Below are positions 21 to 31,236 of a stretch of 64,000 bases of DNA, one piece after another (positions within the stretch are counted from its first letter, which is position 1; every line of letters begins with the position of its first letter). The position numbers were made by a program, and so were the translations under genes. Below the pieces are notes generated by a model, which worked only from the letters and a program-made list of their open reading frames with translations, did not search any database and was not told the origin of the DNA. This DNA is from Polyangia bacterium (lineage in GTDB: Bacteria; Myxococcota_A; Polyangia; JAAYKL01): positions 700-64,699 of the forward strand of contig JBNLED010000235.1 of assembly GCA_050304755.1 (NCBI GenBank). Direction: 5' to 3'.

Positions 21-36
21 TGGTATGTGTCTTGCT
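21..36 (+). promoter_or_regulatory. sigma54 -24/-12 promoter upstream of pat
   Basis: TGGTATGTGTCTTGCT fits TGGYAYRNNNNTTGCW with exact GG-N10-GC spacing, about 40 nt before the ATG at 78. Confidence 0.75.
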
Positions 37-77
37 TGGAACCACACCGACATATCATCGGACACATGAGGAAAACG

Positions 78-2753
78 ATGAGCACGCGCAATCTGAGACA
101 GCTGTTTCGGCCGAAATCCATCGCTGTGATCGGGGCATCGAATAGACCGTCCAGTATCGGGGCGATTTTAATGCGGAACCTCCTCGGCGCGGGTTTCGAC
201 GGACCGATCATGCCGGTCAATCCCAAGCACGAAGCCGTGGCCGGCGTGATCGCCTACAACGACGTGGCGAGCTTGCCCATCACGCCGGAGCTGGCGCTGA
301 TGGCCACGCCCCCCGCCTCGATTCCCGGTCTGATAGACGCGCTGGGGAAACGGGGCACCAAAGCCGCGGTGGTGCTCACCGCGGGTATGGGGGCAACCGA
401 TGAGGGGGGCGGTCCGAGCTTTCAGCAAAAGATGGTCGAAGCGGCCAAGCCCTATTCGCTGCGCATCCTCGGTCCCAACTGCGTCGGTCTGATCATCCCC
501 GGGCTCGGCCTCAACGGGAGCTTTGCGCACACCACGACCCTGCCGGGAAAGCTGGCCCTGGTGACCCAGTCGGGGGCGCTCGTCACCGCAATTTTGGACT
601 GGGCCGAATCCCGGTCCATCGGGTTTTCCCATTTCATCTCGCTGGGCAACAGCGCGGACGTGGACTTCGGCGACACCTTGGACTATCTGGGGAGCGATCC
701 CGGAACCCGAGCCATTCTGTTATATATCGAGTCAGTCACCCATGCGCGGAAGTTCATGTCCGCGGCCCGGGCGGCCGCCCGCAACAAGCCGGTCATCGTG
801 GTCAAGGCCGGTCGGACACGAGAAGGAGCCGCGGCCGCTTTGTCGCACACCGGAGCGCTGGCAGGCTCCGACGACGTGTACGACGCGGCGATTCGCCGGG
901 CCGGAATGCTTCGGGTATCGGAAATCGAAGACCTGTTCGACGCGGTGGAGAACTTGGCGAGATCGCGTGCTTTCAATGACGACCGTCTCACCATCCTGAC
1001 CAACGGCGGAGGCCCCGGGGTAATGGCCACTGACGCGCTGGCCAGGGCCGGCGGACGGCTCTTAGAGCTCTCTTCCGAGACGATCGAACGACTGGACAAG
1101 CTGCTTCCGGGAACTTGGTCACGACGCAATCCCGTGGATATCATCGGCGATGCGCCGGTGGAACGCTACCTCGAGGCCATGAAGATACTCTTCGCTGACA
1201 AGGGGTGCGAATCGATTCTGTTCATCCACGCGCCGACGGCCATCGTGCCGAGCGAAAAGATCGCGGAGGCCCTGGCGCCCGCCATTTCGGAATCAACCGC
1301 TAACGTTCTAAGTTGCTGGCTCGGCGTCAACGGCGTCGCCGGGGCGAGGCGGCTTTTTTCCGACAATAACATCCCCACCTACGATACGCCCGAGGATGGG
1401 GTCCGCGCGTTTATGCAGATGGTGGACTACAAGCGGAATCAGGCGCTGCTCATGGAGACCCCCGCCTCCTCGCCTGAGACCGTTCCGGAGATGGATCAAG
1501 TCAAACGCATCGTCGCCGAGGTTTTGAGAGAAGAAAGGGAGCTCTTGACCGAGCCAGAGGCAAAGGCGGTTCTCGCGGCCTACGGTATTCCGGTGGTATC
1601 GACTGAAATCGCAACGGACGTCAACGAGGCCGTGTCCGCGGCTCGGAAGCTCGGATTTCCCGTCGCCGTGAAGATCCTCTCTTTGGACATTTCGCACAAA
1701 TCAGATGTCGGGGGAGTGGCGCTCGATCTCATGACGCCTGATGCGGTGAACGCCGCGGCCCTGGGGATGATGACACGCATTCGAGAGCTGAGGCCCGATG
1801 CGCGGATCCAGGGCTTCGCCATCCAGCAAATGATTCGCAGAGCCGGCGTGCACGAGCTGATTGTGGGCGCCGCGACAGACCCGATCTTCGGTCCGGTGAT
1901 ACTCTTCGGTCAGGGGGGCACCGGCGTGGAGGTCATCGGGGATCGCGCCGTCGGGCTGCCGCCGCTGAACACGAAGCTGGCCCGGGAGCTCGTCGAGCGC
2001 ACGCGTGTGTCCAAGCTGCTCGATGGGTATCGCGATCGACCGCGAGCCAGACTCGACGACATCTACCGCGCGATAATTCAGATATCTCAGCTGATCGCCG
2101 ACGTGCCCGAGATTGCCGAGTTGGACATCAATCCGCTATTCGCGGACGAGAACGGCGTTTTGGCAGTAGACGCGCGCATCCGCGTGATCCGCTCAGCTGA
2201 AAAGGGCCCAAGTCGCCTCGCCATTAGACCGTACCCACGGGAGCTCGAGGAACACATTGAATTCGACGGAAGGCCCATCCTCCTGCGCCCCATCCGTCCG
2301 GAGGACGAGCCGGCCCACGCCGAGCTGCTCTCCAAGCTTCGCCCCGAGGACCGGCGCCTGCGATTTTTTGGGCAGGTGAGTGAGTTTCGTCACACGGAGA
2401 TGGCGAGGTTCACGCAGATCGACTACGACCGAGAGATGGCGTTCATCGCCGACGCCAGAAAGCAAGACGGAGAGCCCGAGACGTTGGGCGTGGTCCGGAT
2501 CGTCGCATATGCCGACAATGTCCGCGCCGAGTTCGCGATAATCGTACGCTCCGACATGCAAGGACACGGCCTCGGCCGCATCCTGGCCGACAAGATGATT
2601 CGTTACTGCCGCGCCAGCGGCATTCGGGAGCTCGTCGGGAGCGTGCTCAGCGACAACCGGCGGATGCTCTCTCTGGTCGATGAGCTCGGTTTCTCGCGGG
2701 TCGGGACAATCGATGACACCTATGAGATCAGCCTCGCACTGCAGGCACGGTAG
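78..2753 (+). CDS. pat: Protein lysine acetyltransferase Pat/YfiQ type (NDP-forming acyl-CoA synthetase-like domains plus C-terminal GNAT)
   Basis: N-terminal LFRPKSIAVIGAS, LGPNCVG, SHTGALAG, ATP-grasp SHKSDVGGV, and C-terminal GNAT AEFAIIVRSDMQGHGLGR; start moved to ATG 78 behind a GAGG RBS. Confidence 0.9.
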   Translation: MSTRNLRQLFRPKSIAVIGASNRPSSIGAILMRNLLGAGFDGPIMPVNPKHEAVAGVIAYNDVASLPITPELALMATPPASIPGLIDALGKRGTKAAVVLTAGMGATDEGGGPSFQQKMVEAAKPYSLRILGPNCVGLIIPGLGLNGSFAHTTTLPGKLALVTQSGALVTAILDWAESRSIGFSHFISLGNSADVDFGDTLDYLGSDPGTRAILLYIESVTHARKFMSAARAAARNKPVIVVKAGRTREGAAAALSHTGALAGSDDVYDAAIRRAGMLRVSEIEDLFDAVENLARSRAFNDDRLTILTNGGGPGVMATDALARAGGRLLELSSETIERLDKLLPGTWSRRNPVDIIGDAPVERYLEAMKILFADKGCESILFIHAPTAIVPSEKIAEALAPAISESTANVLSCWLGVNGVAGARRLFSDNNIPTYDTPEDGVRAFMQMVDYKRNQALLMETPASSPETVPEMDQVKRIVAEVLREERELLTEPEAKAVLAAYGIPVVSTEIATDVNEAVSAARKLGFPVAVKILSLDISHKSDVGGVALDLMTPDAVNAAALGMMTRIRELRPDARIQGFAIQQMIRRAGVHELIVGAATDPIFGPVILFGQGGTGVEVIGDRAVGLPPLNTKLARELVERTRVSKLLDGYRDRPRARLDDIYRAIIQISQLIADVPEIAELDINPLFADENGVLAVDARIRVIRSAEKGPSRLAIRPYPRELEEHIEFDGRPILLRPIRPEDEPAHAELLSKLRPEDRRLRFFGQVSEFRHTEMARFTQIDYDREMAFIADARKQDGEPETLGVVRIVAYADNVRAEFAIIVRSDMQGHGLGRILADKMIRYCRASGIRELVGSVLSDNRRMLSLVDELGFSRVGTIDDTYEISLALQAR

Positions 2754-2837
2754 GGGAGGGCGTGATGGGGCGAATCGGTCTGCGTCTCTGATCGACCTGG
2801 GGGGCGGCGACCCCACCGGGGACCGCCTTGGCATCCC

Positions 2838-3200: not shown

Positions 3201-3260
3201 GTTTCACTCTCGGGCTTTCTGTTTTAAAATTGATATCACCGTGTTTTCACGGTTTCTTTC

Positions 3261-3276
3261 TTCAATAATCGTACCA
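3261..3276 (-). promoter_or_regulatory. Possible sigma54 promoter (imperfect -12) for the STAS gene
   Basis: Minus strand TGGTACGATTATTGAA: perfect -24 and correct spacing, but GA instead of GC at -12. Confidence 0.4.
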
Positions 3277-3456: not shown

Positions 3457-3472
3457 TGGCATCGTTATTGCT
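3457..3472 (+). promoter_or_regulatory. sigma54 promoter for the methyltransferase-DAGK unit
   Basis: TGGCATCGTTATTGCT. Confidence 0.75.
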
Positions 3473-4186: not shown

Positions 4187-4220
4187 CACCTTGAAATTCC
4201 AATAGACGAAGGCAGACGGA

Positions 4221-5346: not shown

Positions 5347-5362
5347 TGGCACAAGCCATGCA
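5347..5362 (+). promoter_or_regulatory. sigma54 promoter upstream of the 81-aa ORF
   Basis: TGGCACAAGCCATGCA. Confidence 0.65.
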
Positions 5363-5928: not shown

Positions 5929-7248
5929 CTAGCCCTCCATGCGAGGGGGTTGCCCGGTGGACATGACGACGTCCCGCCAAAGCGGGCTCTCTGGATCGAT
6001 ACAGTTTCGCCGGCTTGTGGTGACGGCGATGGGCACGTGGACCAGGCGATTGTTGATCATGCCGACGATACAGGCGGTCCGACCGGTCATTGCCGCGTGA
6101 ACCGCATTGCTACCGAGTCGTCCACAATAAATGGCGTCAACCGGGTTGGCCGGTGTGCTGCGGATGATGTAGCTCGGGTCGATATACTTGATATTCACCT
6201 CTAGGCTACCTTCTTTGAAGAAATCCGCAACTCGCTGTTTCAGATAGATACCTATATCTCCTAACTTCTTGTTGCCCGAGGCGTCTTGTCCTTGTGTTGC
6301 CACCAGAGATTGTCCGGAGCCTTCAGCCACCAGGATAACCGCATGATGCCGCCGTTGAAGTCGCTGTTCGAGCAGTGCTAGCAGGCCCATCTCCCCTTCC
6401 AACATGAAGGGGACTTCCGGTATGAGAACGAAGTTGACCTCATTGGCGGCCAGGCACGTATGAGCGGCGATGAACCCCGATTCACGCCCCATCACCTTGA
6501 CGATACCGATGCCGTCAACCGCACCGCGGGCCTCGGTGTGGGCGCTCGAAACTGCTTGCACGGCCTGGGAGACAGCTGTTTCGAATCCGAATGATTTTTC
6601 GACAAAGCTCAAATCGTTGTCGATGGTTTTGGGTATCCCCACCACGGCGATAGGCTTGTTTCGTCGAAGAAGCTCTCCTGCGATACCGAGCGCTCCCAGC
6701 AGGGTACCGTCACCGCCGATGGTGAACAATATGTCCAGCTTCAATCGCTCTATGGCGTCCGCGAGCTCGGTGGTGCGGTCGCCGCCGCCCCTCGACGACC
6801 CCAGGATGGTCCCACCATCGCGATGAATATCTCGAACCACATCCGGTTGGAGGGCTAGGACAGGATATCGAGAAAGGGGAAGCAGTCCCTGATACCCATA
6901 TCGGATTCCGCTGATCTGTCGCACACCGTAGGAATACCAGAGCGTCATCACAATCGAACGAATGACATTGTTCAATCCCGGGCAAAGCCCACCACAAGTG
7001 ACGATCCCCGCATGCACGCCCTGCGGTTCAAAGAAGATCTGCTCTCTTGGACCGGCCCGTTCCAACAAACCGCGGGGAGGTAACGATTCTGAGACAGTAT
7101 CAAGAGTAAAATCGATGTCGTAGAGCACCCGCTCATCATCTCTCACGTAGTTTGCCAGCGAGTCCCCTAGGTGCGTTGACAGTTTAATAGGCGATGGCGT
7201 TTCGGCGACACCGAGTTTTGTAATCGAAAAGTCTAACGCGCTCATCAT
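5929..7248 (-). CDS. pfkA: ATP-dependent 6-phosphofructokinase (long, clade X type)
   Basis: TCGGLCPGLN, GGTILGSSRG, GGDGT (Gly suggests ATP use), PKTIDND, VMGRESG and DPSYIIRS. Confidence 0.92.
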   Translation of the reverse strand: MMSALDFSITKLGVAETPSPIKLSTHLGDSLANYVRDDERVLYDIDFTLDTVSESLPPRGLLERAGPREQIFFEPQGVHAGIVTCGGLCPGLNNVIRSIVMTLWYSYGVRQISGIRYGYQGLLPLSRYPVLALQPDVVRDIHRDGGTILGSSRGGGDRTTELADAIERLKLDILFTIGGDGTLLGALGIAGELLRRNKPIAVVGIPKTIDNDLSFVEKSFGFETAVSQAVQAVSSAHTEARGAVDGIGIVKVMGRESGFIAAHTCLAANEVNFVLIPEVPFMLEGEMGLLALLEQRLQRRHHAVILVAEGSGQSLVATQGQDASGNKKLGDIGIYLKQRVADFFKEGSLEVNIKYIDPSYIIRSTPANPVDAIYCGRLGSNAVHAAMTGRTACIVGMINNRLVHVPIAVTTSRRNCIDPESPLWRDVVMSTGQPPRMEG

Positions 7249-7294
7249 TGTGGTTTCCTATTTTATATCCCGAGTGATCTTCACTTGTAAATCG

Positions 7295-8050
7295 TCAATT
7301 GGACACGGACGACATTGGGGACTTGCGAGCAGAGTGCGAGGGATGCTTTTTTGAGCCAATAGGATGCAACTCGGCTCCTCCCTCGAGTGGACGGGACGGT
7401 CCAGGTCGTTCGCCCTCCAAAATGAATTTGGCGCGACAATCCTCGCTACAGAAGTAATAACGTTGAGAGCCTTGACCGGTTTCAGAAATTGCAAACGCTT
7501 TGTTCACCTGCGTGTCGCAAACCGGATCACGAACGAGGTTTTGCTTCTGATACTGCTCGTGGTGTGCCAATTGAAAATATATATCAAGAAAATTCAAAAG
7601 CGTTTTCTCAACCCATTCTACGAGTCGCGATTCATCCGGGTCGTCCAACGAAATCGAAAGGGCGCCCCGTTTATCAAATTTCATGAAGACAGGCAGGATT
7701 TGCAACGACCAAGTGATATCGAGATTTTCAATACCGGCGTCATGTGAAACCCAAAAGTCCAGTGTTGTGCCGGCGGGAAACCGGGGGCTTGCCTCAAACC
7801 GGCAAATCAAACGACGACCATTGGCATCTTGCGAAGAAAGGGAGGCGTTTTCGAAATACGAAACCAACCTTTCCAACCGCGGTCGAATAACGTTGTCGAG
7901 CACCTGATCGGCGATTTTCGTATATCTCACCAGTCGAGTCGTTCTCTCCTCGTGCTGACGGTTCAGCGACTGCTGGTAGGCCCGTATCTGTTCTTCTTCC
8001 GTCGCGAGTTTCTCTTTAATTTTTTTTATGAAATCATTGAGGCTCTGCAT
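7295..8050 (-). CDS. YHS domain-containing protein
   Basis: C-terminal VRDPVCDTQV...YYFCSEDCRAKF; coiled-coil-like N-terminus. Confidence 0.75.
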   Translation of the reverse strand: MQSLNDFIKKIKEKLATEEEQIRAYQQSLNRQHEERTTRLVRYTKIADQVLDNVIRPRLERLVSYFENASLSSQDANGRRLICRFEASPRFPAGTTLDFWVSHDAGIENLDITWSLQILPVFMKFDKRGALSISLDDPDESRLVEWVEKTLLNFLDIYFQLAHHEQYQKQNLVRDPVCDTQVNKAFAISETGQGSQRYYFCSEDCRAKFILEGERPGPSRPLEGGAELHPIGSKKHPSHSARKSPMSSVSN

Positions 8051-8116: not shown

Positions 8117-8132
8117 TGCAAGACGCATGCCA
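8117..8132 (-). promoter_or_regulatory. sigma54 promoter for the YHS-pfkA unit
   Basis: Minus strand TGGCATGCGTCTTGCA. Confidence 0.8.
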
Positions 8133-8902: not shown

Positions 8903-8918
8903 TGCATTCCTCGTGCCA
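8903..8918 (-). promoter_or_regulatory. sigma54 promoter for hpf paralog 1
   Basis: Minus strand TGGCACGAGGAATGCA. Confidence 0.75.
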
Positions 8919-10195: not shown

Positions 10196-11089
10196 CTATA
10201 TGGACCGACGACCGACCGGCGACCGCAGTGCGCCGTCGACTTGCGCATCGAAATGAACATCCAACTGAGGGAAGGCGATGACGATCCCGGCTTCCTTGAG
10301 CGCCCACCAGATGGCCTCGTTCAGCTCCGAGGTGAGTCTTCTGGCGATCCATGGTTCATTACTCCAGACAAACACTTTAAAGTTCACCGCTGAATCGGCG
10401 AACTCGGTCATCTGCACGCGAGGGTCCTTTGTCCCATCCCGCCAAGGGATGCTTTTTGCGGTGGCATCGAGCACCTCCCGCACTTGTCGCATATCCGAGC
10501 TGTAGACCACTCCCACCGTCGAGCTCAGCAAAAAGGAGGCGTCCGACAGGGTGTAGTTCTTCACCATACCCAGAACCAGAATAGAATTGGGGACGATGAT
10601 CTCCTCTTCGTTTCGGGTGCGCACCATTGTCGCTCGGATGCCCATTTTAACGACTTTTACCACCTCTCCCTCTATCTCGAGCACATCCCCTTGCTTAATG
10701 GATTTCTCCACAAGGAGGATTATGCCCGACACGAAGTTTTGTGCGATATTCTGCATGGCAAACCCAAATCCGACGGCGAAAATGGCCCCCGCGGCGAACA
10801 GGGTAGAGAGATCGATGCCGAGAACCTGCAGAGCGGCCACGCCACCGGCCAGCATGATCAAAATCTGCGAAATGCGCTGGATGATAGCCGAGTTTTCCCG
10901 GTTCTTCAGCTCCTTCTTCTCGAAGAACCGATGGATCCCGCGTCGGCTGAGCCGCGACAAGAAATAGGTGGCGAGAACGATGATGATAACAATGATGAGG
11001 CTGCCGACCGTGACCGTGGTCGTCCTTACGGTAAAGAGCTCCACACCGAACATCTCTTTTACAGTCATAAATATGCCGTGCTGACTCAT
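10196..11089 (-). CDS. mscS: Small-conductance mechanosensitive channel (MscS family)
   Basis: GVGFG-like GFGFAMQNIAQNFVSGIILL, IKQGDVLEI, IIVPNS and IVIAFPQ motifs. Confidence 0.88.
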   Translation of the reverse strand: MSQHGIFMTVKEMFGVELFTVRTTTVTVGSLIIVIIIVLATYFLSRLSRRGIHRFFEKKELKNRENSAIIQRISQILIMLAGGVAALQVLGIDLSTLFAAGAIFAVGFGFAMQNIAQNFVSGIILLVEKSIKQGDVLEIEGEVVKVVKMGIRATMVRTRNEEEIIVPNSILVLGMVKNYTLSDASFLLSSTVGVVYSSDMRQVREVLDATAKSIPWRDGTKDPRVQMTEFADSAVNFKVFVWSNEPWIARRLTSELNEAIWWALKEAGIVIAFPQLDVHFDAQVDGALRSPVGRRSI

Positions 11090-11125: not shown

Positions 11126-11141
11126 AGCAAAATACATACCA
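11126..11141 (-). promoter_or_regulatory. sigma54 promoter for the mscS-activator unit
   Basis: Minus strand TGGTATGTATTTTGCT. Confidence 0.75.
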
Positions 11142-11407: not shown

Positions 11408-11423
11408 TGGTACGAAAGTTGCT
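11408..11423 (+). promoter_or_regulatory. sigma54 promoter for groES-groEL
   Basis: TGGTACGAAAGTTGCT, about 28 nt before the groES ATG. Confidence 0.75.
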
Positions 11424-11450: not shown

Positions 11451-11741
11451 ATGAAAATTCGACCGTTATATGACCGCATTTTGGCCAAACGATTGGAAAA
11501 AGAAAAGAAGACTTCGGGTGGCCTTATCATTCCGGACAACGCCAAGGAGAAGCCCCTCGAGGCGCTGGTCGTCGCCGTCGGCAGCGGTAAACGCCTCGAT
11601 AATGGTGAGATGCTGCAGCCCTCGGTGAAGACCGGCGACAAGGTGCTCATCGGCAAGTACTCGGGATCTGAGGTTGAGATCGACGGTAAGGACCACATCA
11701 TTCTGCGCGAGGACGACCTCCTCGCTATCATCGAAAGATAG
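11451..11741 (+). CDS. groES: Co-chaperonin GroES
   Basis: [11 protein letters not shown], mobile loop [16 protein letters not shown]. Confidence 0.97.
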
Positions 11742-11751
11742 GGAAAGTTAA

Positions 11752-13332
<1,581 letters not shown>

Positions 13333-13423
13333 CGCAAGGTTTGAGATGAAAACGCTTCGCCTCCCGCCCATGGGCTCAACACCAAATCCCGCAACGAGCG
13401 TTATACCCCCCTGGGAGAGACCA

Positions 13424-17738: not shown

Positions 17739-17754
17739 TGCATACCTCATGCCA
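17739..17754 (-). promoter_or_regulatory. sigma54 promoter for hpf paralog 2
   Basis: Minus strand TGGCATGAGGTATGCA; 14 of 16 positions identical to the paralog 1 promoter. Confidence 0.75.
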
Positions 17755-17781: not shown

Positions 17782-17797
17782 TGGCTGATTTTTTGCA
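17782..17797 (+). promoter_or_regulatory. Divergent sigma54 promoter for the small basic protein
   Basis: TGGCTGATTTTTTGCA; GG-N10-GC kept, weaker -24. Confidence 0.5.
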
Positions 17798-21105: not shown

Positions 21106-24100
21106 TCAACCTTCGCAAACGCCCGCGTCGGCATCCTCGTCCGCAGGCTCATCCCCCTCCTGTCCGCTTCCCTCGTCCTTGTCCGAAGGAAGATCTTTCT
21201 CCTCGGCGGCCGGGATCTCATCGGCCTCCGCGGGCTCGGACAACTGCGCTGCCGCATCCCCGACGGTCCCGTCCGTCGTTACGCTTCCCAGTGAGAGGCG
21301 CTTCCAGAGAAAGTAGATAGCCGGGATGATGACCAGGGTCAGGATGGTGGAGGAGACCATGCCGCCCACCATGGGCGCGGCGATGCGCTTCATGATTCTC
21401 GTGCCGGTCTCGGTGCCGAACATGATGGGCAGAAGCCCGATGGTGGTGGTCGTCACCGTCATGAGCTTTGGGCGTAGGCGATCCACGGCGCCCTCGATGA
21501 CGATGGCCTTGAGGTCGGAGAGCGTGTGGAGACGCCCCTCGGCACGCCAGCGATCATAGGTTTCGTCGAGGTAGACCAGCATCACCACCCCGGTCTCTGC
21601 GGCGAGCCCGGCCAGCGCGATGAACCCGACCGCCACCGCCACCGATACGTTGAAGTCGAACCAGTAGAGCAGCCAGACCCCGCCCACCAGGGCGAAGGGG
21701 AGGGTCAGCATCACGATGGTCGTCTCGGTGGCGTTCCTGAAGTGCAGAAACAAGAGCACGAAGATGAGGGCGAGGGTAATCGGGACCACCGTCATCAACC
21801 GCTTGTTCACCCGCTCCATGTACTCGTACTGGCCCGACCAGACGATGGAGACCCCCTCGGTGCGGCCGAGCTTGTCGGCGAGCAGCTTCTTGGCCGTCTC
21901 CACGTAGCCCCCCACATCGGCGGTCTTGAGATCCACGAAGATCCAGGCGGTCCGACGGGCGTTCTCGCTCTTGATCATCGGCGGGCCCTTGCTGATGCTG
22001 ACATCGGCCACCTGGGCCAGCGCCACCCCGTGCCCCATGGGGGTCGGTACGGTGAGCTCTTTGAGCTTCTCCACATTGTTTCGAAGCTCCCGCGGGTATC
22101 GCACGTTGATCGGATACCGTTCCAGCCCCTCCACCGTCTTGCTCACATTCATGCCGCCGATGGCGCTGCGGACCACGCGTTGCACGTCCCCCACCGTCAG
22201 GCCGAACCGCGCCGCGTCCTGCCGCCGAATATCGATGTCGACGTAGTTCCCCCCGACGACCCGTTCCGAGTAGACCGACGCCGTGTCTTTCAGCTCCCTG
22301 AGGAGCGCTTCGATTTTCTGCCCGATCTCCGAGAGCTGCTCCAAGTCGTCCCCCATCAGCTTGATGCCCACCGGGGTCTTGATCCCGGTGGCGAGCATAT
22401 CGATGCGGGTCTTGATGGGCATGGTCCAGGCGTTGGTGAGGCCCGGAAACTGTATCATCCCGTCCAGCTCCTTGATGATATCCTCGATGGTCTTTCCCTC
22501 GGGCCAGGTCTCGGGATCATCGAGCTGAATCACCGTCTCGATCATCGACAAAGGCGCCGGATCGGTGGCGGTCTCGGCCCGGCCGATCTTGCCGAGCACG
22601 TGCTTTACCTGGGGATGGGAGGCGATGAGCTTGTCGGTCTGCTGCAGCAGCTCCTTGGCCTTGGTAATGCTGATGCCGGGGGGCGTGGTGGGCATGTAGA
22701 GCAGGTCTCCCTCGTTGAGGGGCGGCATGAACTCACTGCCGAGCTGCGTATACGGCCACACGGAAGCCGCGGTTACCCCAATCGCCAGCAGGATCGTCGC
22801 CACGGGAAACCGGAGCACGAGGCGGATGATCGGCTTGTAGATCCAGATGAAGAAGCGGCTCAAGGGGTGTTTTTTCTCGCTGAGCATCTTGCCCCTGACG
22901 AAGTAGAACATCAGCACGGGGATGATGGTGATGGCCAGGACAGAGGACGCGGCCATGGCGAAGGTCTTGGTGTAGGCCAGCGGTCTGAAGAGCCGGCCTT
23001 CCTGCTGCTCCAGGGTAAAAACCGGCAGGAAGCTCACGGTGATGATGAGTAGCGAAAAGAAGAGCGCCGGGCCCACCTCCTGGGCCGCCTTGATGACCAT
23101 CTCCTGGTGGGTGAGCCCCGAGTCCCGCTCCCGGTGCTTGTGGAGGTTCTCCACCATCACCACCGAGGCGTCCACCATCACCCCGATGGCGATGGCGATT
23201 CCCCCGAGGCTCATGATGTTGGCATTGATGCCGATAAGCCCCATCACGAGAAAGCTGAGCAGGATGCCCGCGGGCAGGGTGATGATCGCCACCAGGGCGG
23301 AGCGCACGTGGAGCAGAAACAATATGATCACGATGGCGACGACGATCATCTCCTCCACGAGCTTGGTCTTCAGCGTGTCGATGGCCTTGCCGATGAGCGT
23401 TGATCGATCATAGGAGGTGTGAATCCGGATGCCCTCCGGCAACCCCTTCTTGAGCTCTTCGAGTCGTTGCTTGACCCGCTGGATGACCTCCAAGCCGTTC
23501 TCGCCGAATCGCATGACGATGATACCGGAGACCGCCTCGCCTTTGCCCCCCATCTCGATGATCCCGCGCCGGATGTCCGGCCCGATGCCGATCTCCGCGA
23601 CCTGGGAGAGCATGATGGGGGTGTGGGTTTCGACGTCCACCCCTACCGGGATGTTCCGGAGATCGTCCAAAGAGCGAATATATCCCTTGCCTCGGACCAT
23701 GAACTCTGTCTCCGCCATCTCCAGCAGACGCCCCCCCACGTCGATGTTGGAATCCTTGATGGCCGTGTTGATCTGCTTGAGGGTGAGCCCGAACGCCCGC
23801 AGCTTCTCGGGATCCACCTCCACCTGGTACTGCTTTATGAACCCGCCCGCGCTCGCCACCTCGGCCACGCCGGGCAGGCTCATCAGCTCGTAGCGCAGGT
23901 ACCAGTCCTGGATGGAGCGGAGCTCGGCCAGGTCGTGTCGGTCCGACGTCAGCGTGTATTGATAGACCCACCCCACCCCCGTGGCGTCGGGACCCAGCTC
24001 CGGGGTGACCCCCTCCGGGAGCCTGCCCTGCACGACATTCAGGTACTCGAGCACCCGGGAGCGCGCCCAGTAGAGATCGGTGCCGTCCTCGAAGATGACA

Positions 24101-24381
24101 TACACCATGGAGAAGCCGAAGAACGAGTAACCGCGTACGGTCTTGGCATAGGGCACCGACAACATGGAGGTGGTGAGGGGATAGGTCACCTGGTCCTCCA
24201 CCACCTGGGGAGACTGGCCCGGGAACCGGGTGAAGACGATGACCTGCACGTCCGAAAGGTCGGGGATGGCGTCCACCGGCATGTTGAGCATGGCGGAGGC
24301 GCCCAAGGCCAGTACGACCATGGCGAGCACGATGACGAGGAAGCGGTTCTTGACGCTCTTCTCGATGATCCATTTAATCAT
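21106..24381 (-). CDS. cusA: CusA/CzcA family heavy-metal RND transporter
   Basis: DAIPDLSDVQVI, LGPDATGVGWVYQY, IGVMVD, EGDLLYMP, RLRPKLMT; Met residues typical of the Cu/Ag subfamily. Confidence 0.93.
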   Translation of the reverse strand: MIKWIIEKSVKNRFLVIVLAMVVLALGASAMLNMPVDAIPDLSDVQVIVFTRFPGQSPQVVEDQVTYPLTTSMLSVPYAKTVRGYSFFGFSMVYVIFEDGTDLYWARSRVLEYLNVVQGRLPEGVTPELGPDATGVGWVYQYTLTSDRHDLAELRSIQDWYLRYELMSLPGVAEVASAGGFIKQYQVEVDPEKLRAFGLTLKQINTAIKDSNIDVGGRLLEMAETEFMVRGKGYIRSLDDLRNIPVGVDVETHTPIMLSQVAEIGIGPDIRRGIIEMGGKGEAVSGIIVMRFGENGLEVIQRVKQRLEELKKGLPEGIRIHTSYDRSTLIGKAIDTLKTKLVEEMIVVAIVIILFLLHVRSALVAIITLPAGILLSFLVMGLIGINANIMSLGGIAIAIGVMVDASVVMVENLHKHRERDSGLTHQEMVIKAAQEVGPALFFSLLIITVSFLPVFTLEQQEGRLFRPLAYTKTFAMAASSVLAITIIPVLMFYFVRGKMLSEKKHPLSRFFIWIYKPIIRLVLRFPVATILLAIGVTAASVWPYTQLGSEFMPPLNEGDLLYMPTTPPGISITKAKELLQQTDKLIASHPQVKHVLGKIGRAETATDPAPLSMIETVIQLDDPETWPEGKTIEDIIKELDGMIQFPGLTNAWTMPIKTRIDMLATGIKTPVGIKLMGDDLEQLSEIGQKIEALLRELKDTASVYSERVVGGNYVDIDIRRQDAARFGLTVGDVQRVVRSAIGGMNVSKTVEGLERYPINVRYPRELRNNVEKLKELTVPTPMGHGVALAQVADVSISKGPPMIKSENARRTAWIFVDLKTADVGGYVETAKKLLADKLGRTEGVSIVWSGQYEYMERVNKRLMTVVPITLALIFVLLFLHFRNATETTIVMLTLPFALVGGVWLLYWFDFNVSVAVAVGFIALAGLAAETGVVMLVYLDETYDRWRAEGRLHTLSDLKAIVIEGAVDRLRPKLMTVTTTTIGLLPIMFGTETGTRIMKRIAAPMVGGMVSSTILTLVIIPAIYFLWKRLSLGSVTTDGTVGDAAAQLSEPAEADEIPAAEEKDLPSDKDEGSGQEGDEPADEDADAGVCEG

Positions 24382-24396
24382 GACAGGTATCCTCCG

Positions 24397-26493
24397 TCAG
24401 CGCTTCTTCTCCACGAGATCCATGCCGCACTTGGGACACGTGCCGGGGCCGTCCTGGACCACCTCCGGGTGCATGCCGCAGGTCCAGTAGGTATCGCCGC
24501 CGGCCCCCTTGCCATCGACCTTGTCGTCCGCCTGGTACTGGCCTTTCTTTTTTGACTGCAGACGCGCCGCCAACAGCTTGGACACCGCCTCCTGGAGCTG
24601 GCTTTCCGAATCGAGCAGGAACTGCCCGGAGACCACCACCTCCTCGCCCTTGGTGAGACCTTCCAGAATTTCGGTCTTGTGGTTGTCGGCCACAAGCCCG
24701 GTGACCACCTCCCGGGGTTCGTACTTGCCGTACCCCCTGACGACAAACACGATGCGCCGCTCCCCGGAGTGGAGCACCGCCTCGGAGGGCACCGTGACGG
24801 CGTGGTCCTTGCGTCGGGTCTCGATGCGCACAATGGCCAGCATTCCGGGTTTCAGGTCGATCCCGGGGTTCTCGAACTCCAGGCGGACTCGCAGGGTTCG
24901 CGATTTGCGGTTCAGGGTCGGGTAAACGTATGACACCGTTCCCTCCCACGCCTTGCCTTGCTGAGAGGTGAGCTCGATGGACGCCGGCTGCCCCACGGAG
25001 ATCCACGGGGCGTCGTACTCGTACACCTCGGTGTTCACCCAGATGCGGTCGAGATCGCCGATGCGGTAGAGATCGGCCCCGGAGTTCACGTGGGCGCCGA
25101 GCACGACATTTTTGTGAAGCACGTAACCCGAACGGGGGGCGTAGATGGTGAGGGTCTTCGAGGCCTTGCCGTCCGAGGCAATTCGCTTCAGATACCGGGG
25201 GCCGATGCCCCACAGCTCCATCCGCCGGGCCGCCGAGCGTGCCAGTCTTCCGTCCGGTCCCTCGGTGCGCACCGCGAGCAGGTACTCCTCCTGGGCCGCC
25301 ATCAGCTCCGGGGAGTAGACGTTGAAGAGCGGCTGCCCGCGCTTCACCTTCTGACCCGTTTCGTCCACGAAAATGCGCTCGATCCATCCGTTGAACCGGA
25401 GGTTGACGACGGAGACCTCGTCCTCGGCCACCTCCACCTCGCCGATGGTGCGCACGTGCCGGAAGATGGGACCGTGCGTGACCTTGGCCACCCGGACCCC
25501 CATGTTCTGCACCACCACCGGGTCAATCCGGATGGTCTTGCCATCATCCGAGGTCCCCGCGCTCTCATCCTCGTACACCGGCACCAGGTCCATGCCCATG
25601 GGGGACTTGCCAGGCTCGTCTCGAATGTAGGTCGGATCCATCGGCGCGACCCAGTATTTGATTTTTCTATCGCCGGATTTTCCCGAGGGGACCTCGGGGG
25701 ACGCGGTCCCGGCCGCCGGCTGTTTCCCGAGCATCTTCACGTACCGCTCTGGGTTCTTGTCGAATATCGGCTTGCACATGGCGCAACAGAAGACATAGGT
25801 CTTGCCCTGGTATTCGCTGCTCGCGGTTTCCTTCGTAACGGTAAAATCGTTCTGCATGACAGGACAGAACGCCTTGGTCCCCACCGGCGGCATCCCGTCG
25901 AAGCCGTTCACGTGGACGTGGTTCGCGTGTTCGTCCTCCGGCTGTTCGTGGGCATGACCATCGCGGGAGATCACTTCATCCTCCGCCGGACTCAGATACC
26001 TCTCCGGATCCGCGTCGAACTGCGGCTTGCAGCCCGGGCAACAGAAGACATAGTGCTTGCCCAGGTATTCGGAGTGCAGGGTGTTCTCGTTCACCTCGAA
26101 GACATTGCCCATCACCGGGCACTTGGCCCGGGTCCCGACCGCCGGTTTTTCGTCAAAGGCAATCGGCGCGGTCTCATCCCCGGCGCCGGCATCATGCGTT
26201 TTTCCGCTCGCTTCTACGGACGCCTGCGGCGGATGCGCCGCTTCCTTCTGGGTGCCGCGTCCCTCCGCCATGGGGACCAGATCCATCTTGCAGATGGGGC
26301 AGGTTCCCGGCGCCTCCTGAACCACGGTGGGATGCATGGGACAGGTGTACAGCGGGTGGTTCTCCGCGTTTTTTTCTTCGGTTGTTCCGGGCAGGAAATC
26401 GGGCTGCCCCAGTTGGAACGCCGTGAAAATCCCGCCTGCGACCAGCGCCAACAGCCCCGTGACGATTATCACCTTTTTCACTTTCCCACTCAT
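24397..26493 (-). CDS. cusB: CusB-like periplasmic adaptor with HMBD and two YHS domains
   Basis: YTCPMHP, two CPVM...YVFCC..CKP.FD YHS repeats, YWVAPMDP..PGKSPMGMDLVP, MFP core and a C-terminal WTCGMHP; ATGA overlap with the upstream gene at 26490-26493. Confidence 0.88.
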   Translation of the reverse strand: MSGKVKKVIIVTGLLALVAGGIFTAFQLGQPDFLPGTTEEKNAENHPLYTCPMHPTVVQEAPGTCPICKMDLVPMAEGRGTQKEAAHPPQASVEASGKTHDAGAGDETAPIAFDEKPAVGTRAKCPVMGNVFEVNENTLHSEYLGKHYVFCCPGCKPQFDADPERYLSPAEDEVISRDGHAHEQPEDEHANHVHVNGFDGMPPVGTKAFCPVMQNDFTVTKETASSEYQGKTYVFCCAMCKPIFDKNPERYVKMLGKQPAAGTASPEVPSGKSGDRKIKYWVAPMDPTYIRDEPGKSPMGMDLVPVYEDESAGTSDDGKTIRIDPVVVQNMGVRVAKVTHGPIFRHVRTIGEVEVAEDEVSVVNLRFNGWIERIFVDETGQKVKRGQPLFNVYSPELMAAQEEYLLAVRTEGPDGRLARSAARRMELWGIGPRYLKRIASDGKASKTLTIYAPRSGYVLHKNVVLGAHVNSGADLYRIGDLDRIWVNTEVYEYDAPWISVGQPASIELTSQQGKAWEGTVSYVYPTLNRKSRTLRVRLEFENPGIDLKPGMLAIVRIETRRKDHAVTVPSEAVLHSGERRIVFVVRGYGKYEPREVVTGLVADNHKTEILEGLTKGEEVVVSGQFLLDSESQLQEAVSKLLAARLQSKKKGQYQADDKVDGKGAGGDTYWTCGMHPEVVQDGPGTCPKCGMDLVEKKR

Positions 26494-27782
26494 CGGCTCA
26501 CCCCGCTTGCGTCGCTGCCCGCGACGGTTTCGATCTCTTTTCCAATCGTGGTTTCGATCTTTGCCTTCATCCGCCGGGTGGTCATTCGGGCCGAGTGAAT
26601 CGCTCGCTCGAACTCGATCAAATCGACCTCGGAGCGGTAGATGGAGAAGAAGTCCGCCCGATCGGTCTCGTACGCGAGCATCGCGGACTCCAGGGTTCTT
26701 TGGGCCGCGGGCACCAGCGTCTCCGAGTAGTTCTTTTCTTTCGAGTAGGCTCTCTGCCACGCGGCGAGGCTTCTTTCTATATCGGTCCCGATCTCGTCTA
26801 TCACCGCGCTCTTCTGATACTCGGTGGCCTTGGCCTGCTCCAGGTGCGCCGCTCGCTTCGCGTCCGTCGTGCCGAGGTAATCGAAGGGAATCGGAATGGC
26901 CGCGCCGATGGACATCTGGTCCGTGCCGTCATCCATGCCCACCTCCGCGCGAAATCGATAGCCGAGCCACACAGAGAAGTCCGGCCTTCGCTCATAGGCC
27001 GCCTGGTCCGCCGCGAGCCTCGACGCGCGCGCCCTCTCGTCCAGCGCGAACAACGCGGGACGGTTCTCCTTGGCCTCTGCGATGAGCGCGTCCAAGTCGG
27101 ATGGCGGGACGACCGACGTGGCGGCTTTCGGCGTGTCGATCTGGGTTCGAGGCCCCCTGTGGAGCGCGTTGTTGATCGACGCGGTGATCTCCCGAGCCTT
27201 CTTATCGAATTCCTCCAGCTCTTCGGTCAGCCGGTCTTTGAGCAGGGCCATGCGCAGCACGTCCTGCTGGTTGCCGCGGCCCACCTCGTATCTGAGGCGC
27301 ACGGATTCGAGGATCCTGTCCACGGCGGCGATGTGCTCCTCCGTCACCGCCTTCAGCTGTCGTACGAGGGTGAGCGACAGATAGCCCTCTTTCACGGCGC
27401 CCTTGAGCTGCACCGCCATCTCCTCCCGATCCATCTTCGTTGCCTTCGCCTCGGCCAGGGACACCGCCTCGCGTTTGTCGTTCTTGCCGGGGAAGGGAAA
27501 GGTCTGGGTCACCTTGAGCTGAATGCCGGTCATCGGGGAGTCGCCGAGCGCCCAGGAGTTCACGGGGAAGTTGGAGTACTCCACGGCCACCACCGGATCC
27601 ATCCACTTCTGCACCGCCTTGGACTTGTACTTCAGCGCTTCGACCTGCCTCTCCATGACCGAGAGCCTGGGGTTCACGCGGACCGCCTCCTCGGCGAGCG
27701 CGTTCAGGTCGTCCTCCGCCACACTCTGAAGCGGAGAGATGAGAATCAACAGAGCCCCCGTTATTACTGCTTTTCGTTTCAT
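26490..27782 (-). CDS. TolC/CusC family outer membrane efflux protein
   Basis: Signal peptide, QTFPFPGK, YEVGRGNQQDVL and AYETDRADFF; first gene of the RND operon. Confidence 0.85.
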   Translation of the reverse strand: MKRKAVITGALLILISPLQSVAEDDLNALAEEAVRVNPRLSVMERQVEALKYKSKAVQKWMDPVVAVEYSNFPVNSWALGDSPMTGIQLKVTQTFPFPGKNDKREAVSLAEAKATKMDREEMAVQLKGAVKEGYLSLTLVRQLKAVTEEHIAAVDRILESVRLRYEVGRGNQQDVLRMALLKDRLTEELEEFDKKAREITASINNALHRGPRTQIDTPKAATSVVPPSDLDALIAEAKENRPALFALDERARASRLAADQAAYERRPDFSVWLGYRFRAEVGMDDGTDQMSIGAAIPIPFDYLGTTDAKRAAHLEQAKATEYQKSAVIDEIGTDIERSLAAWQRAYSKEKNYSETLVPAAQRTLESAMLAYETDRADFFSIYRSEVDLIEFERAIHSARMTTRRMKAKIETTIGKEIETVAGSDASGVSR

Positions 27783-27907: not shown

Positions 27908-27923
27908 AGCAATAAGCGTGCCA
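27908..27923 (-). promoter_or_regulatory. sigma54 promoter for the cusCBA-like operon
   Basis: Minus strand TGGCACGCTTATTGCT, a consensus match. Confidence 0.85.
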
Positions 27924-27977: not shown

Positions 27978-27989
27978 GAGAATATTCTC
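27978..27989. promoter_or_regulatory. 12-bp perfect palindrome between divergent sigma54 promoters
   Basis: GAGAATATTCTC. Confidence 0.3.
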
Positions 27990-28078: not shown

Positions 28079-28094
28079 TGGCATGACGCTTGCT
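28079..28094 (+). promoter_or_regulatory. sigma54 promoter for the secreted YHS protein
   Basis: TGGCATGACGCTTGCT. Confidence 0.8.
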
Positions 28095-28154
28095 CGAAAT
28101 TGGGGACAGCATTGATAAGACCCGCGGAGACGCGGAATGACAAAGGAGAAGAAG

Positions 28155-28505
28155 ATGGTACGCACAATGTTATCTGCCATGGCGACCGGGGGCCTGCTCA
28201 CCGTTGGGCTTCTTCAAGGCGGCAACGCTTTGGCCGCCGAACACGGTCACCCCATGCATCATGGGGACCAACACGCCGCGGGCAAAGGTCATCACGGACA
28301 GGACAAAGGCGCGGCGAAGAGTGCCAAGAACGGGTTCAAGAAGAAACCCGCCGTTGGGACCAAGGCCAAGTGCCCGGTTATGGGCAACGAGTTCACGGTC
28401 TCGAAGGAGACCACGTTTTCGAAGTACAAGGGCAAGTACTACGCGTTTTGTTGCCCCGGGTGCAAACCGCAGTTCGACAAGACCCCGGAAAAATACTTGA
28501 AGTGA
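28155..28505 (+). CDS. Secreted His-rich YHS-domain protein (putative metal chaperone)
   Basis: AAGGAG RBS, signal peptide ending ALA, HGHPMHHGDQH, and a YHS domain KPAVGTKAKCPVM..YYAFCCPGCKPQFD. Confidence 0.8.
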   Translation: MVRTMLSAMATGGLLTVGLLQGGNALAAEHGHPMHHGDQHAAGKGHHGQDKGAAKSAKNGFKKKPAVGTKAKCPVMGNEFTVSKETTFSKYKGKYYAFCCPGCKPQFDKTPEKYLK

Positions 28506-29572: not shown

Positions 29573-31117
29573 TCACTTCAACCCCAAGCGCACGGCCAAG
29601 TGATGAAAGTTGCTGCGATGCATTCCGAGGGATCGGGCGGCCGAGGACCAGTTGCCCTGGTGTGTCGTCAGGGCTTGCCTTATCAGCGAGCGTTGGAAGT
29701 CACGCGTCGCTTCCTTGATATCGATGGGCGATGCCTCTGATTCCAGTGCGAATGCTTCCCTGGGCACGCTGCGCGTTACCCGAGCGAAATCCGAGCCGAG
29801 ATGTGCGATCGTAATGAGAACCGGCTCTCCCCGAGGGATACCTGCGGCGGCCTTGAGCGTCACCCGCGACAATACGTTCTCCAACTCTCTCACGTTTCCA
29901 GGCCAGGGGTAGGCCTTGAGTGCGTCGATGGCTTCCGGTTCCAGCCGTATCGGCCCGAGCCCCAGGCGGGTGCGGTTCAAATCGCAGAAGAACCCTGCGA
30001 GAAGGGGAACATCGTCCACACGCTCTCGAAGGGAAGGCACGCGGAGCGGATACACGTTGAGCCGATGAAACAGATCCGCGCGATAGTGTCCGGCGTTGAC
30101 TTCGGCCGCGAGGTCCCGGTTGGTCGCGGCAACGACACGCACATCGGCCGTGGTGATTCGGTCCGACCCGACCCGTTGGATTTCCCCCTGCTGCAAGGCG
30201 CGGAGGAGCTTGGGCTGCAAGGAGAGGGGCAGCTCGCCGATCTCGTCCAGAAACAAGGTGCCCTTGTCCGCCACCTCGAACTTGCCGGCGCGGTCGGCGG
30301 TGGCTCCGGTGAACGAGCCCCGGACATGACCAAAGAGCTCGCTGTCGGCGAGGCTCTCGGGCAGCGCCGCGCAGTTGACGTAGAGCATGGGCTCGTCTTT
30401 GCGCTTCGATGCCGCGTGCACCGCCGTGGCGACGAGCTCCTTGCCCACGCCGGTCTCTCCCATGATGAGGACCGTGAAGTCCGAGCGGGCGACGAGATCA
30501 ATGTCCTCCCTCAGACGCTGCATCAACTTCGTGGTGCCGATCATGTCGCTCCCTTGACGCAGCTTCACGTCTCGCATGAGATCCCGCGCGATCAAACCGC
30601 TCTTCTCCGCACTCTTCTCCAGGGCTTCAATCAGATGGGTCGTTCGCATCTCCGCCGCCGCCAGGGCCCCGATGGCGGCGAGGAAGCGTTGGTCGATATC
30701 ATCGAACGCGTTTGGTTGTACGGCGTCGGCGGTCAACGCGCCGATGAGCTCATCACCAATCCGAAGCGGACACCCGAGGCAGGCGTGGACATGGGTGAAC
30801 CCACCCTCGTCACCGAGCAACCCGTCGAAGGGGTCCGGCAGGTTGCTGTCACTCGGGAAGAGCACGGGAGCCTCGGATCGGCAGATGATCTCCAGGCGAG
30901 GCTGCTCCTTCAGCCGGTACCGCCTTCCCATGGCGTCGGGTGACAGCCCCATGGAGACGATGGGAACGAGGGAGTCGCCCTCCAATCGGAGCAACGATGA
31001 CGCGTCGAAGGGAATGACCCGATGAAGTGCGTCCAGCAAACGTTCATATCGTTCCTCCGAAGAGAGGGCGGCGGTCAAATCCGAGGCTATGGCGACGATG
31101 GCTTCTAAGGGATCCAT
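29573..31117 (-). CDS. norR: NO-sensing sigma54 activator NorR
   Basis: GAF domain with [15 protein letters not shown] and TADA (Fe-ligand pattern of E. coli NorR); AAA+ [14 protein letters not shown]; C-terminal HTH. Confidence 0.9.
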
Positions 31118-31182
31118 TGTTGCGATCGATACAACAATGTTGCGTTATTCGCAACTTTCTTGCTGTTGTACATATAGCAACA
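31118..31182. promoter_or_regulatory. Three tandem 17-bp palindromes, candidate NorR enhancer sites
   Basis: GTTGCGATCGATACAAC (31119), GTTGCGTTATTCGCAAC (31139), GTTGTACATATAGCAAC (31165); consensus GTTGY-N7-RCAAC. Confidence 0.7.
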
Positions 31183-31220
31183 TATCTGAATAACCCACTG
31201 ATATGTATCACTATAGCTTT

Positions 31221-31236
31221 CGGCACACACCTTGCT
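31221..31236 (+). promoter_or_regulatory. sigma54 promoter for ric
   Basis: CGGCACACACCTTGCT. Confidence 0.75.

Follow-up and report, generated by a model that had tools for sequence, protein, structure and literature searches.

A stress-gene neighbourhood on a dense set of predicted sigma-54 promoters in a Polyangia bacterium, with probably more than one activator input

Textbooks usually present sigma-54 as the sigma factor of nitrogen, flagellar or envelope functions. In a 64,000-nt stretch of contig JBNLED010000235.1 from a Polyangia bacterium (assembly GCA_050304755.1; hereafter the window, with positions counted from its first letter), candidate -24/-12 promoters of this kind front chaperonins, ribosome-hibernation-like factors, a protein acetyltransferase and central-carbon enzymes. 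This raises the question whether the motifs are genuine promoters and, if they are, whether one activator or several would drive them. An earlier note made from the sequence of the window had listed 13 such sites in the first 31 kb, and had proposed a single assembled programme for stress, dormancy or metabolic shutdown. The reading that we favour, with a probability of roughly 0.55, is that the first 31 kb form a stress-gene neighbourhood on genuine sigma-54 promoters that receives at least two, and probably at least three, separate activator inputs rather than one. Wiring of this kind would be genuine yet commonplace, set apart mainly by how dense it is and by which genes it targets; noteworthy are that density, a sensor-less activator behind a sigma-54 promoter, and a target set of HPF-like proteins, a tail-less GroEL, a Pat-like protein, phosphofructokinase and aconitase.

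All 13 of the listed 16-mers are present at the coordinates and on the strands given for them. When the sites were abstracted to the pattern TGGYAYN5TTGCW, the window contained seven exact matches versus 0.15 expected from dinucleotide shuffles, with none of 100 shuffles reaching seven, and 15 matches versus 3.5 expected if one mismatch was allowed. Since this pattern was built from the listed sites themselves, we ran an independent test with the literature consensus TGGCACG-N4-TTGCW, keeping GG and GC fixed and allowing at most two mismatches. This search returned 13 matches in the window. Upstream zones in the right orientation account for 6.1% of the search space when the strands are counted separately, and they contain 11 of these matches (binomial p = 3e-12). 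Such zones hold a site in 11 of 17 cases within 1-32 kb versus none of 18 within 32-64 kb (Fisher p = 3e-5), which bears out the earlier remark that no equally good match precedes the carbohydrate-active enzyme (CAZyme) genes of the second half. For comparison with outside DNA, we counted the exact pattern in 80 unrelated loci from other bacteria, where 1.40 Mb yielded a single match, and in loci with an activator homolog at their centre, where 0.77 Mb yielded 27; the window has seven in 31 kb. On these shuffle, placement and zone-occupancy statistics, a chance origin of the motifs was rejected.

Eleven of the 13 listed sites are canonical: all are intergenic and face a gene, have GG and GC spaced by exactly 10 nt, and end 26-150 nt before the start codon, a spacing that would leave room for a predicted transcription start about 11 nt past the GC plus a ribosome-binding site. 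The other two are the site at 3261(-), which reads TTGAA at -12, so that GA replaces the required GC, and the site at 17782(+), which has three mismatches to the consensus and no intact gene downstream. The consensus of 12 window sites, TGGcAcGa.t.TTGCt, reads as a textbook sigma-54 promoter, and in the first 31 kb a promoter comes every 2.6 kb or so on average. Truly divergent pairs number three (3261/3457, 11126/11408 and 27908/28079). Judged by sequence, position and orientation, the motifs are thus predicted sigma-54 (-24/-12) promoters, and what the earlier note said of their places, orientation and divergent pairing holds. Its targets were also recovered by Pfam (Pat-like protein, phosphofructokinase, aconitase, two HPF-like proteins, GroESL, PLD, MscS, CusCBA and Ric); its list omitted the gene at 2838-3200, which encodes a SpoIIAA-like/STAS protein and not an HPF. 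Two units in the first 31 kb lack the motif, namely, the Bax1(DUF790)-XPB helicase pair and a methyltransferase-norR operon. None of the genes of the second half has it (GH5, GH88, GH31, GH43, arabinofuranosidase, esterases, two ECF sigmas, a FecR-type anti-sigma and an HU/IHF-family protein). The features are collected in Table 1.

Table 1. Predicted promoters, palindromes and genes of the first 32 kb of the window
Feature	Position	Strand	Basis or remark
P21, promoter candidate TGGTATGTGTCTTGCT	21..36	+	exact TGGYAYN5TTGCW match, intergenic, about 30-40 nt before the pat-like start
Pat-like protein	66..2753 (start codon 66 or 78)	+	Pfam CoA_binding_2, Succ_CoA_lig, ATP-grasp_5, Acetyltransf_1
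SpoIIAA-like/STAS protein, 120 aa	2838..3200	-	PF11964, E = 7e-26
P3261, imperfect candidate TGGTACGATTATTGAA, before STAS gene	3261..3276	-	one mismatch, GA for GC at -12
Palindrome CGTCTTATCCG-N18-CGGATAAGACG, candidate shared enhancer for P3261/P3457	3347..3386		11-bp perfect arms
P3457, candidate TGGCATCGTTATTGCT	3457..3472	+	exact match; 87 nt before ATG at 3560
SAM methyltransferase, then DAGK/YegS-type lipid kinase, operon	3560-5210	+	Pfam, both genes
P5347, candidate TGGCACAAGCCATGCA	5347..5362	+	upstream of 81-aa open reading frame (ORF)
81-aa ORF	5413-5658	+	weak DUF2007 likeness
YHS-domain gene (7295-8050) and phosphofructokinase (5929-7248), operon	5929..8050	-	Pfam YHS, PFK; 46-nt gap
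P8117, candidate TGGCATGCGTCTTGCA	8117..8132	-	exact match; 66 nt before ATG at 8050
HPF/RaiA-like protein 1 (HPF1), 119 aa	8410..8769	-	PF02482, 37.7 bits vs cut-off 23.7
P8903, candidate TGGCACGAGGAATGCA, before HPF1	8903..8918	-	up to one mismatch to TGGYAYN5TTGCW
bEBP1, sensor-less sigma-54 activator, 362 aa	9028..10116	-	PF00158, E = 2e-67, AAA+ from residue 34, then HTH_8
MscS-type mechanosensitive channel, first gene of mscS-bEBP1 operon	10196..11089	-	Pfam MS_channel domains
P11126, candidate TGGTATGTATTTTGCT, before mscS-bEBP1	11126..11141	-	exact match; 36 nt before ATG
Palindrome ACATTTCGAAACGT	11256-11269		mscS/groES divergent region
Palindrome CCAAAAGG-N22-CCTTTTGG	11298-11335		mscS/groES divergent region
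P11408, candidate TGGTACGAAAGTTGCT, before groES	11408..11423	+	exact match; 27 nt before ATG
groES-groEL-PLD/cardiolipin-synthase-like-aconitase, probable operon	11451..16866	+	Pfam, gene calls
HPF/RaiA-like protein 2 (HPF2), 125 aa	17211..17588	-	PF02482, 29.5 bits vs 23.7; HPF1 paralog
P17739, candidate TGGCATGAGGTATGCA, before HPF2	17739..17754	-	150 nt ahead of start
P17782, weak site TGGCTGATTTTTTGCA	17782..17797	+	faces 39-aa ORF 17929-18048 and aconitase remnant 18066-18290
cusC-cusB-cusA-type metal efflux operon	21106..27782	-	Pfam OEP, HlyD_D23 with HMBD/YHS domains, ACR_tran
P27908, candidate TGGCACGCTTATTGCT, before cusCBA	27908..27923	-	perfect consensus, 0 mismatches to TGGCACG-N4-TTGCW
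Palindrome GAGAATATTCTC	27978-27989		cusCBA/YHS divergent region
P28079, candidate TGGCATGACGCTTGCT	28079..28094	+	exact match; 42 nt before ATG
His-rich YHS/TRASH protein	28137-28505	+	Pfam; hydrophobic N-terminus read as signal peptide
NorR, GAF-AAA+-HTH, 514 aa	29573..31117	-	NCBIfam NF003451 equivalog; Pfam GAF, Sigma54_activat, HTH_8
Three tandem inverted repeats, candidate NorR enhancers	31118..31182		centres about 120, 100 and 74 nt before the inferred start site
P31221, candidate CGGCACACACCTTGCT, before ric	31221..31236	+	82 nt before ATG at 31319
Ric/YtfE di-iron iron-sulfur-cluster repair protein	31319..31981	+	TIGR03652, 245.7 bits vs 204.7; Pfam ScdA_N, Hemerythrin

Two sigma-54 activators, NorR and a protein that we call bEBP1, are predicted to be encoded in these same 31 kb, which the earlier note had not reported. 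Both have the PF00158 domain, a Walker A motif and a GAFTGA-type loop. NorR matches NF003451 with 681.8 bits (cut-off 476) over residues 5-514 of its 514, its loop reads GSFTGA, and the representative of its cluster bears the JGI name 'anaerobic nitric oxide reductase transcription regulator'. Between norR and the divergent ric gene stand two copies of TGTTG-N9-CAACA (31118-31136 and 31164-31182) flanking GTTGCG-N5-CGCAAC (31139-31155), whose centres lie about 120, 100 and 74 nt upstream of the inferred ric start site. In the NorR systems of E. coli and Ralstonia, too, norR and its target diverge and three tandem enhancers precede the sigma-54 promoter, and the ric-type genes norA and dnrN are NorR-controlled in some species (PMC2831303, PMC1274295). 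The window thus resembles E. coli norR-norVW and Ralstonia eutropha norR-norAB in that norR is divergent from its target, with three repeats some 70-120 nt upstream of the -24/-12 element, and it resembles NorR systems in that the target is a Ric/YtfE/DnrN-type di-iron protein. It differs from the E. coli and Ralstonia systems in its loop, in that none of the three repeats, read by eye, contains the GT-N7-AC core of the NorR consensus half-site, in that no nitric oxide reductase or flavohaemoglobin gene adjoins ric, and in the ECF sigma gene (32021-32947) that follows ric after 40 nt and encodes an N-terminal extension of about 150 aa. Taken together, norR and ric make up a predicted classical nitric-oxide circuit with a divergent operator, and we file it as this divergent-operator version because the half-site TGTTG-N9-CAACA differs from GT-N7-AC. 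NorR, sensing nitric oxide through its GAF domain, would most likely bind the repeats at 31118-31182 and activate P31221.

A further input is suggested by the divergent pair formed by cusCBA and the gene for the His-rich YHS protein, which looks like a metal-stress unit and whose activator would most likely respond to metal and have its gene beyond the window. The pair is similar to ZraSR-ZraP of enterobacteria, where one promoter of a divergent sigma-54 pair also drives a small His-rich protein in a metal-stress context. Unlike that system, the window holds no ZraS/ZraR pair, the small protein is of the YHS/TRASH type and not ZraP, and the partner is a CusCBA-type pump.

The second activator gene, bEBP1, codes for a Walker A motif (GESGTGKE), an L1 loop (GAFSGA) and a C-terminal HTH_8 domain behind an N-terminus of 33 residues, with no sensor or receiver domain. 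It falls below every NCBIfam equivalog cut-off, including those of the PspF models TIGR02974 (252 bits, cut-off 443.55) and NF008622 (210.7 bits, cut-off 529). Like PspF and HrpR/HrpS, bEBP1 has an AAA+ sigma-54 interaction domain and a C-terminal HTH only. Unlike them, it has no recognised PspA- or HrpV-like partner nearby (no window ORF scanned matched PspA_IM30), it is read from a sigma-54 promoter, and its closest sensor-bearing relatives have PAS with or without a low-molecular-weight-phosphatase-like domain. bEBP1 thus resembles PspF and HrpS in lacking a sensor, yet does not belong to those families. Its relatives at 83-95% identity are equally short (357-362 aa), whereas those at 60-69% identity carry PAS domains, often with the phosphatase-like domain; therefore, the bEBP1 lineage appears to have lost its sensor. 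Named homologs at about 60% identity come from Planctomycetota or 'Deltaproteobacteria'.

The bEBP1 gene lies 80 nt downstream of mscS with no promoter between them, a position at which its relatives hold a sigma-54 promoter: an exact TGGCAYGAYAATTGCT site stands 46-102 nt before the bEBP1 gene in the related loci L163, L164 and L165. When the leader regions were compared (window 10117-10205 (-), L163 2340-2600, L164 1-175 and L165 120-380), a leader of about 90 nt proved to be conserved in the window, L163 and L165, and in the window it follows immediately on the 3' end of mscS. Since the leader is fused to mscS in this way, we read bEBP1 from P11126, and the arrangement points to a recombination event that fused both units and replaced bEBP1's own promoter by the mscS 3' end. 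In every case the bEBP1 gene would itself be a sigma-54 target, together with mscS here and behind a dedicated promoter in the relatives.

It is known that NorR deprived of its GAF domain is active without a signal (PMC2831303), and that PspF and HrpRS, which are without cis-regulatory domains, are controlled in trans (PMC7057263). If bEBP1 behaves like activators whose N-terminal domain has been deleted, it should be active whenever it is made. Its activity would then be set by its amount, and its amount at a sigma-54 promoter, which would make it an amplifier or cascade element: a trigger would open the bEBP1 promoter, bEBP1 would accumulate, and it would drive its own promoter and some or all of the neighbouring ones. 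As the resident activator, it is the natural candidate to serve the lower-GC core, namely, pat, the STAS gene, the methyltransferase-DAGK operon, the 81-aa ORF, YHS-PFK, HPF1, mscS-bEBP1, groESL-pld-acn and HPF2, an assignment that we infer from adjacency only. This core is compositionally distinct, with a GC content of 57.0% in 1-18.3 kb vs 61-62% elsewhere, and a GC content at third codon positions of 0.53-0.72 for the genes at 2.8-11.7 kb vs 0.75-0.92 in the CAZyme half.

With two cognate activator genes in the region and the classical NorR arrangement at ric, it is very improbable that the motifs do not work, i.e., that they are chance occurrences, sites of another protein or places of unproductive holoenzyme binding, with the genes being read from unrecognised sigma-70-type promoters. 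No strong sigma-70-like promoter was found in these intergenic regions (10 weak matches vs 7.5 expected, none well placed). The sigma-70 consensus of the lineage may differ, so that such a scan may miss sites, and groESL is usually under other control; however, the enrichment, orientation and spacing statistics speak against this explanation, as does the fact that relatives with 72-84% protein identity have kept the promoters of HPF and bEBP1.

As for the HPF genes, the promoters of HPF1 and HPF2 share the spacer GAGG(A/T)ATGCA and the -12 region, and clearly look paralogous. In the related 12.5-kb contig L174, an HPF homolog of 72% identity is preceded by TGGCACGAAGAATGCT, which is identical to the window HPF1 promoter at 14 of 16 positions and shares its unusual AATGC at -12; two further well-placed sites occur on the same contig. 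For HPF1 we adopted the start at 8769 from the L163 gene call, which puts P8903 133 nt before the start (43 nt before an alternative TTG). Homologs of HPF1 carry the JGI name RaiA. Since neither HPF1 nor HPF2 matched an NCBIfam model at E <= 1e-5, the assignment stops at the family level, and both are predicted HPF/RaiA-family, ribosome hibernation-like proteins. Three other sites also recur unchanged in related DNA: P21 in L171, P3261 in the same-species contigs L171-L173, and P11126 in L001, L002 and L163.

We then searched for an element that these promoters might have in common. The palindrome at 3347-3386 is centred at 3366.5, the midpoint of the two -24 GGs and 92 bp from each, but the palindromes of the three divergent regions and the ric region all differ, and because each divergent region has its own, several activators are favoured. 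Some support for a shared factor comes from the half-site GTCTTRT/GATAAGAC, four of whose 11 window copies fall in sigma-54 intergenic regions (4.1% of the window; p = 7e-4 in a post hoc test). The form GATAAGAC/GTCTTAT occurs in three of the window's intergenic regions and also precedes the HPF promoter of L174, and the variant GTCTTGT precedes the promoters of bEBP1 in L163 and L165; we take GTCTTRT as a weak lead. The IHF consensus WATCAANNNNTTR had no match in any promoter region. An HU/IHF-family DNA-binding protein is encoded just outside the promoter cluster (34932-35342 (-), PF00216, E = 1e-23).

These data bear directly on the single programme proposed earlier, in which one signal acting through a master activator such as bEBP1 would switch on all units as a dormancy or shutdown response coupling ribosome hibernation, acetylation, membrane remodelling and carbon flux. 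The part of the proposal that stands is the dense array of predicted sigma-54 promoters before stress-type genes. The units are neighbours with one promoter class in common, bEBP1 has a central position among them and a sigma-54 promoter in front of it, the GTCTTRT copies are spread over window and relatives as described, and HPF-like and SpoIIAA-like genes cluster with carbon-metabolism genes also in the distant locus L175 (below). The unity of the programme does not follow, however, since ric has a dedicated NorR and its own repeats, the cusCBA/YHS pair indicates a metal-specific signal, the palindromes differ among the intergenic regions, and no shared motif exceeds shuffled controls. We therefore consider a single programme quite unlikely. 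The pairing of activators with promoters and the physiological theme of the region are a matter of interpretation, the label 'dormancy/metabolic shutdown' being read from gene names.

A number of observations weigh against the favoured reading as well, with at least two activator inputs and bEBP1 as a candidate for the core. Counts of shared upstream 8- to 11-mers over seven promoter regions were not above those of shuffles, and a Gibbs sampler (widths 10, 14 and 18, with the L163 and L165 bEBP1 promoters included) reached the information content of shuffled sets; since no upstream sequence common to the core promoters emerged, adjacency alone is what ties bEBP1 to any promoter. The GTCTTRT half-site is absent from the remaining sigma-54 intergenic regions, and its enrichment test is post hoc. 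The bEBP1 loop departs from the canonical GAFTGA, and no rpoN was found in the 64-kb window or in the short same-species contigs, the only DNA reached. Distant bEBP1 homologs (42-58% identity in a metagenome scan) never lie beside homologs of the island genes. The intergenic DNA of L163 is 98% identical to that of the window and so has no footprinting power. Lastly, the motif is missing from most of the homologous MscS and GroEL loci of other phyla, and the wiring thus seems evolutionarily shallow.

On the last point, MscS homologs from other phyla (47-60% identity in a genome scan) have no motif upstream. The closest named GroEL matches of the window are from Polyangia at 84% identity; among the GroEL homologs of L167-L170 (82-84% identity) no canonical site was found, except for one 13/16 match about 190 nt before groES in the Polyangia-like contig L170, and therefore deep conservation of the groESL link is not supported. 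One of these loci, L169 (3202-8425, GroEL 84% identical), holds HSP20-groES-groEL, an ORF and an HPF-like gene with an XylR_N/V4R-type sigma-54 activator nearby, and no canonical -24/-12 site before groES. Downstream of bEBP1, synteny differs in L164 and L165. In L175 (positions 1-20366 of a 3.75-Mb contig), HPF-like (60% identical) and SpoIIAA-like genes lie in a pentose-phosphate/glycolysis cluster (G6PD, 6PGD, phosphoketolase, RpiB, transaldolase, aldolase, transketolase and PGI) that adjoins an N-ATPase operon. This HPF/SpoIIAA cluster has no sigma-54 motifs, which suggests that the association of HPF and STAS genes with carbon metabolism predates the sigma-54 wiring.

Signs of rearrangement in the region bring in a further alternative, i.e., a mosaic of unrelated sigma-54 regulons in a genome with many enhancer-binding proteins, in which each unit has its own distant activator and the control exerted by bEBP1 stops at its own gene or the genes next to it. 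The clustering would then have arisen as a side effect of stress genes gathering in a recombination-prone region. The truncated aconitase gene beside Bax1-XPB, the bEBP1 promoter replaced by mscS and the GC step at about 18.3 kb fit this picture, as do the different palindrome at each region, the closeness of the window GroEL to Polyangia and the richness of lineages such as Myxococcota in activators (PMC12316311). On the other hand, 11-12 promoters in 31 kb vs none in the next 33 kb are extreme even when compared with activator-centred loci, the HPF1 and HPF2 promoters are clearly paralogous, and the functional theme is coherent. A mosaic of this sort is, in our judgement, somewhat unlikely, and we keep to a neighbourhood with a few separate activator inputs.

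The remains on which this alternative draws are as follows. The aconitase remnant (18066-18290 (+)) preserves the first 73 codons with 73% protein identity to the intact aconitase at 14596, has 78% DNA column identity, and ends 14 nt before the 3' end of Bax1 (18304). It is preceded by a Lys-rich ORF of 39 aa (17929-18048 (+), MNMGDKGGKKDKQK...). Because only this ORF and the remnant follow 17782(+), we suspect that a divergent unit decayed here and that the Bax1-XPB block was inserted, with P17782 probably being the relic promoter of the truncated unit. In the block itself (18304-20890 (-)), a DUF790 (Bax1-type nuclease) gene overlaps a gene for an XPB/ERCC3-type helicase with a damage-recognition domain; no sigma-54 motif accompanies this pair, which is of the archaeal style.

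Some of the targets have precedent. For Planctomycetia, and less so for Phycisphaerae, an in-silico study of 2025 predicted an enrichment of sigma-54 promoters ahead of the genes for GroEL, GroES, small heat-shock proteins, the DnaK system, proteases, MscS channels (COG0668) and universal stress proteins (PMC12316311). GroESL and MscS behind predicted sigma-54 promoters in the window agree with these predictions, and for this reason have precedent as targets, whereas HPF/RaiA-like and Pat-like proteins, PFK, aconitase, PLD and DAGK are not mentioned in the main text of that study, which also counts Myxococcota among the lineages with many activators (PMC12316311). If the favoured reading is true, the locus would offer a compact test bed for how one sigma factor integrates several activators and for the control of a sensor-less activator through its own sigma-54 promoter (bistability or cascade), and would put to the test the in-silico claim of sigma-54-driven heat-shock and MscS genes outside Proteobacteria. 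The dozen or so short, tight and, as predicted, activator-dependent promoters of graded consensus match could also be used as parts once characterised.

Another comparison is with Nla28 of Myxococcus xanthus, which carries a receiver domain and is part of a two-component system. It acts in an activator cascade during development, on its own promoter and on those of other activators, and its binding site is a tandem 8-bp repeat (PMC9765219). By analogy, the window would likewise have the gene of a starvation- or stress-network activator behind a sigma-54 promoter, with metabolic, envelope and defence targets, and bEBP1, as proposed here, would feed back on itself and on other sigma-54 promoters. 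Unlike in the Nla28 network, a tandem 8-bp repeat was not found at the window promoters.

In this uncultured lineage, sigma-54 with a self-amplifying, sensor-less bEBP1 may even serve as the general stress or dormancy system, a functional counterpart of RpoS or SigB, which we consider unlikely. A trigger would flip the positive-feedback loop at the bEBP1 promoter, the loop would co-induce the two hibernation-like factors, the tail-less GroEL with GroES, the Pat-type acetyltransferase, PFK, aconitase, the lipid-remodelling enzymes and MscS, and post-transcriptional control would come on top through a conserved hairpin of 38 nt in the leaders of the HPF and aconitase messages. Both HPF-like genes of the window carry this stem-loop (AATCTTG...CAAGATT) in their 5' leaders (8794-8831 (-) and 17624-17661 (-)), and so do the HPF homolog and the aconitase gene of L174 (3420-3457 (+) and 6399-6436 (-)). 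Compensatory changes affect four of the 15 pairs, each in one or more of the four copies, and at HPF2 and the L174 aconitase the opposite strand forms a terminator-like hairpin with a T8 run. Rfam at gathering thresholds found nothing in the window, the stem-loop included.

The GroEL of the window (11752-13332 (+)) is 526 aa long, ends in ...AEEPKA and lacks the Gly/Met-rich (GGM) C-terminal tail carried by homologs of 543-549 aa; it is probably a specialised paralog. A GroEL homolog of 82% identity (P0134, 528 aa) is likewise tail-less and stands without groES. The groES unit is tightly packed (gaps of 10 and 13 nt) and its PLD protein has two domains. With its ATG at 14596, the aconitase gene begins about 100 nt before PLD ends and in another frame (14596-14695); so long an overlap is unusual for an operon, and either boundary may be mis-set.

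In the second half, the ECF sigma encoded at 45633-47599 (-) is paired with a FecR/TPR anti-sigma gene beside glycoside hydrolase genes, and the CAZyme half may be under ECF control; like the ECF sigma that follows ric on the (+) strand, it matches PF07638. The Pat-like protein joins NDP-forming acyl-CoA synthetase-like domains to a C-terminal GNAT domain and reaches no NCBIfam equivalog cut-off. In the same-species locus L171 (5468-8776, assembly GCA_050303475.1), a gene for a DUF5670 small membrane protein and an 81-aa ORF lie upstream of pat on the same strand, in DNA that the window does not reach on its left side, and pat itself is split into two ORFs (730 and 126 aa) by a frameshift or an assembly error.

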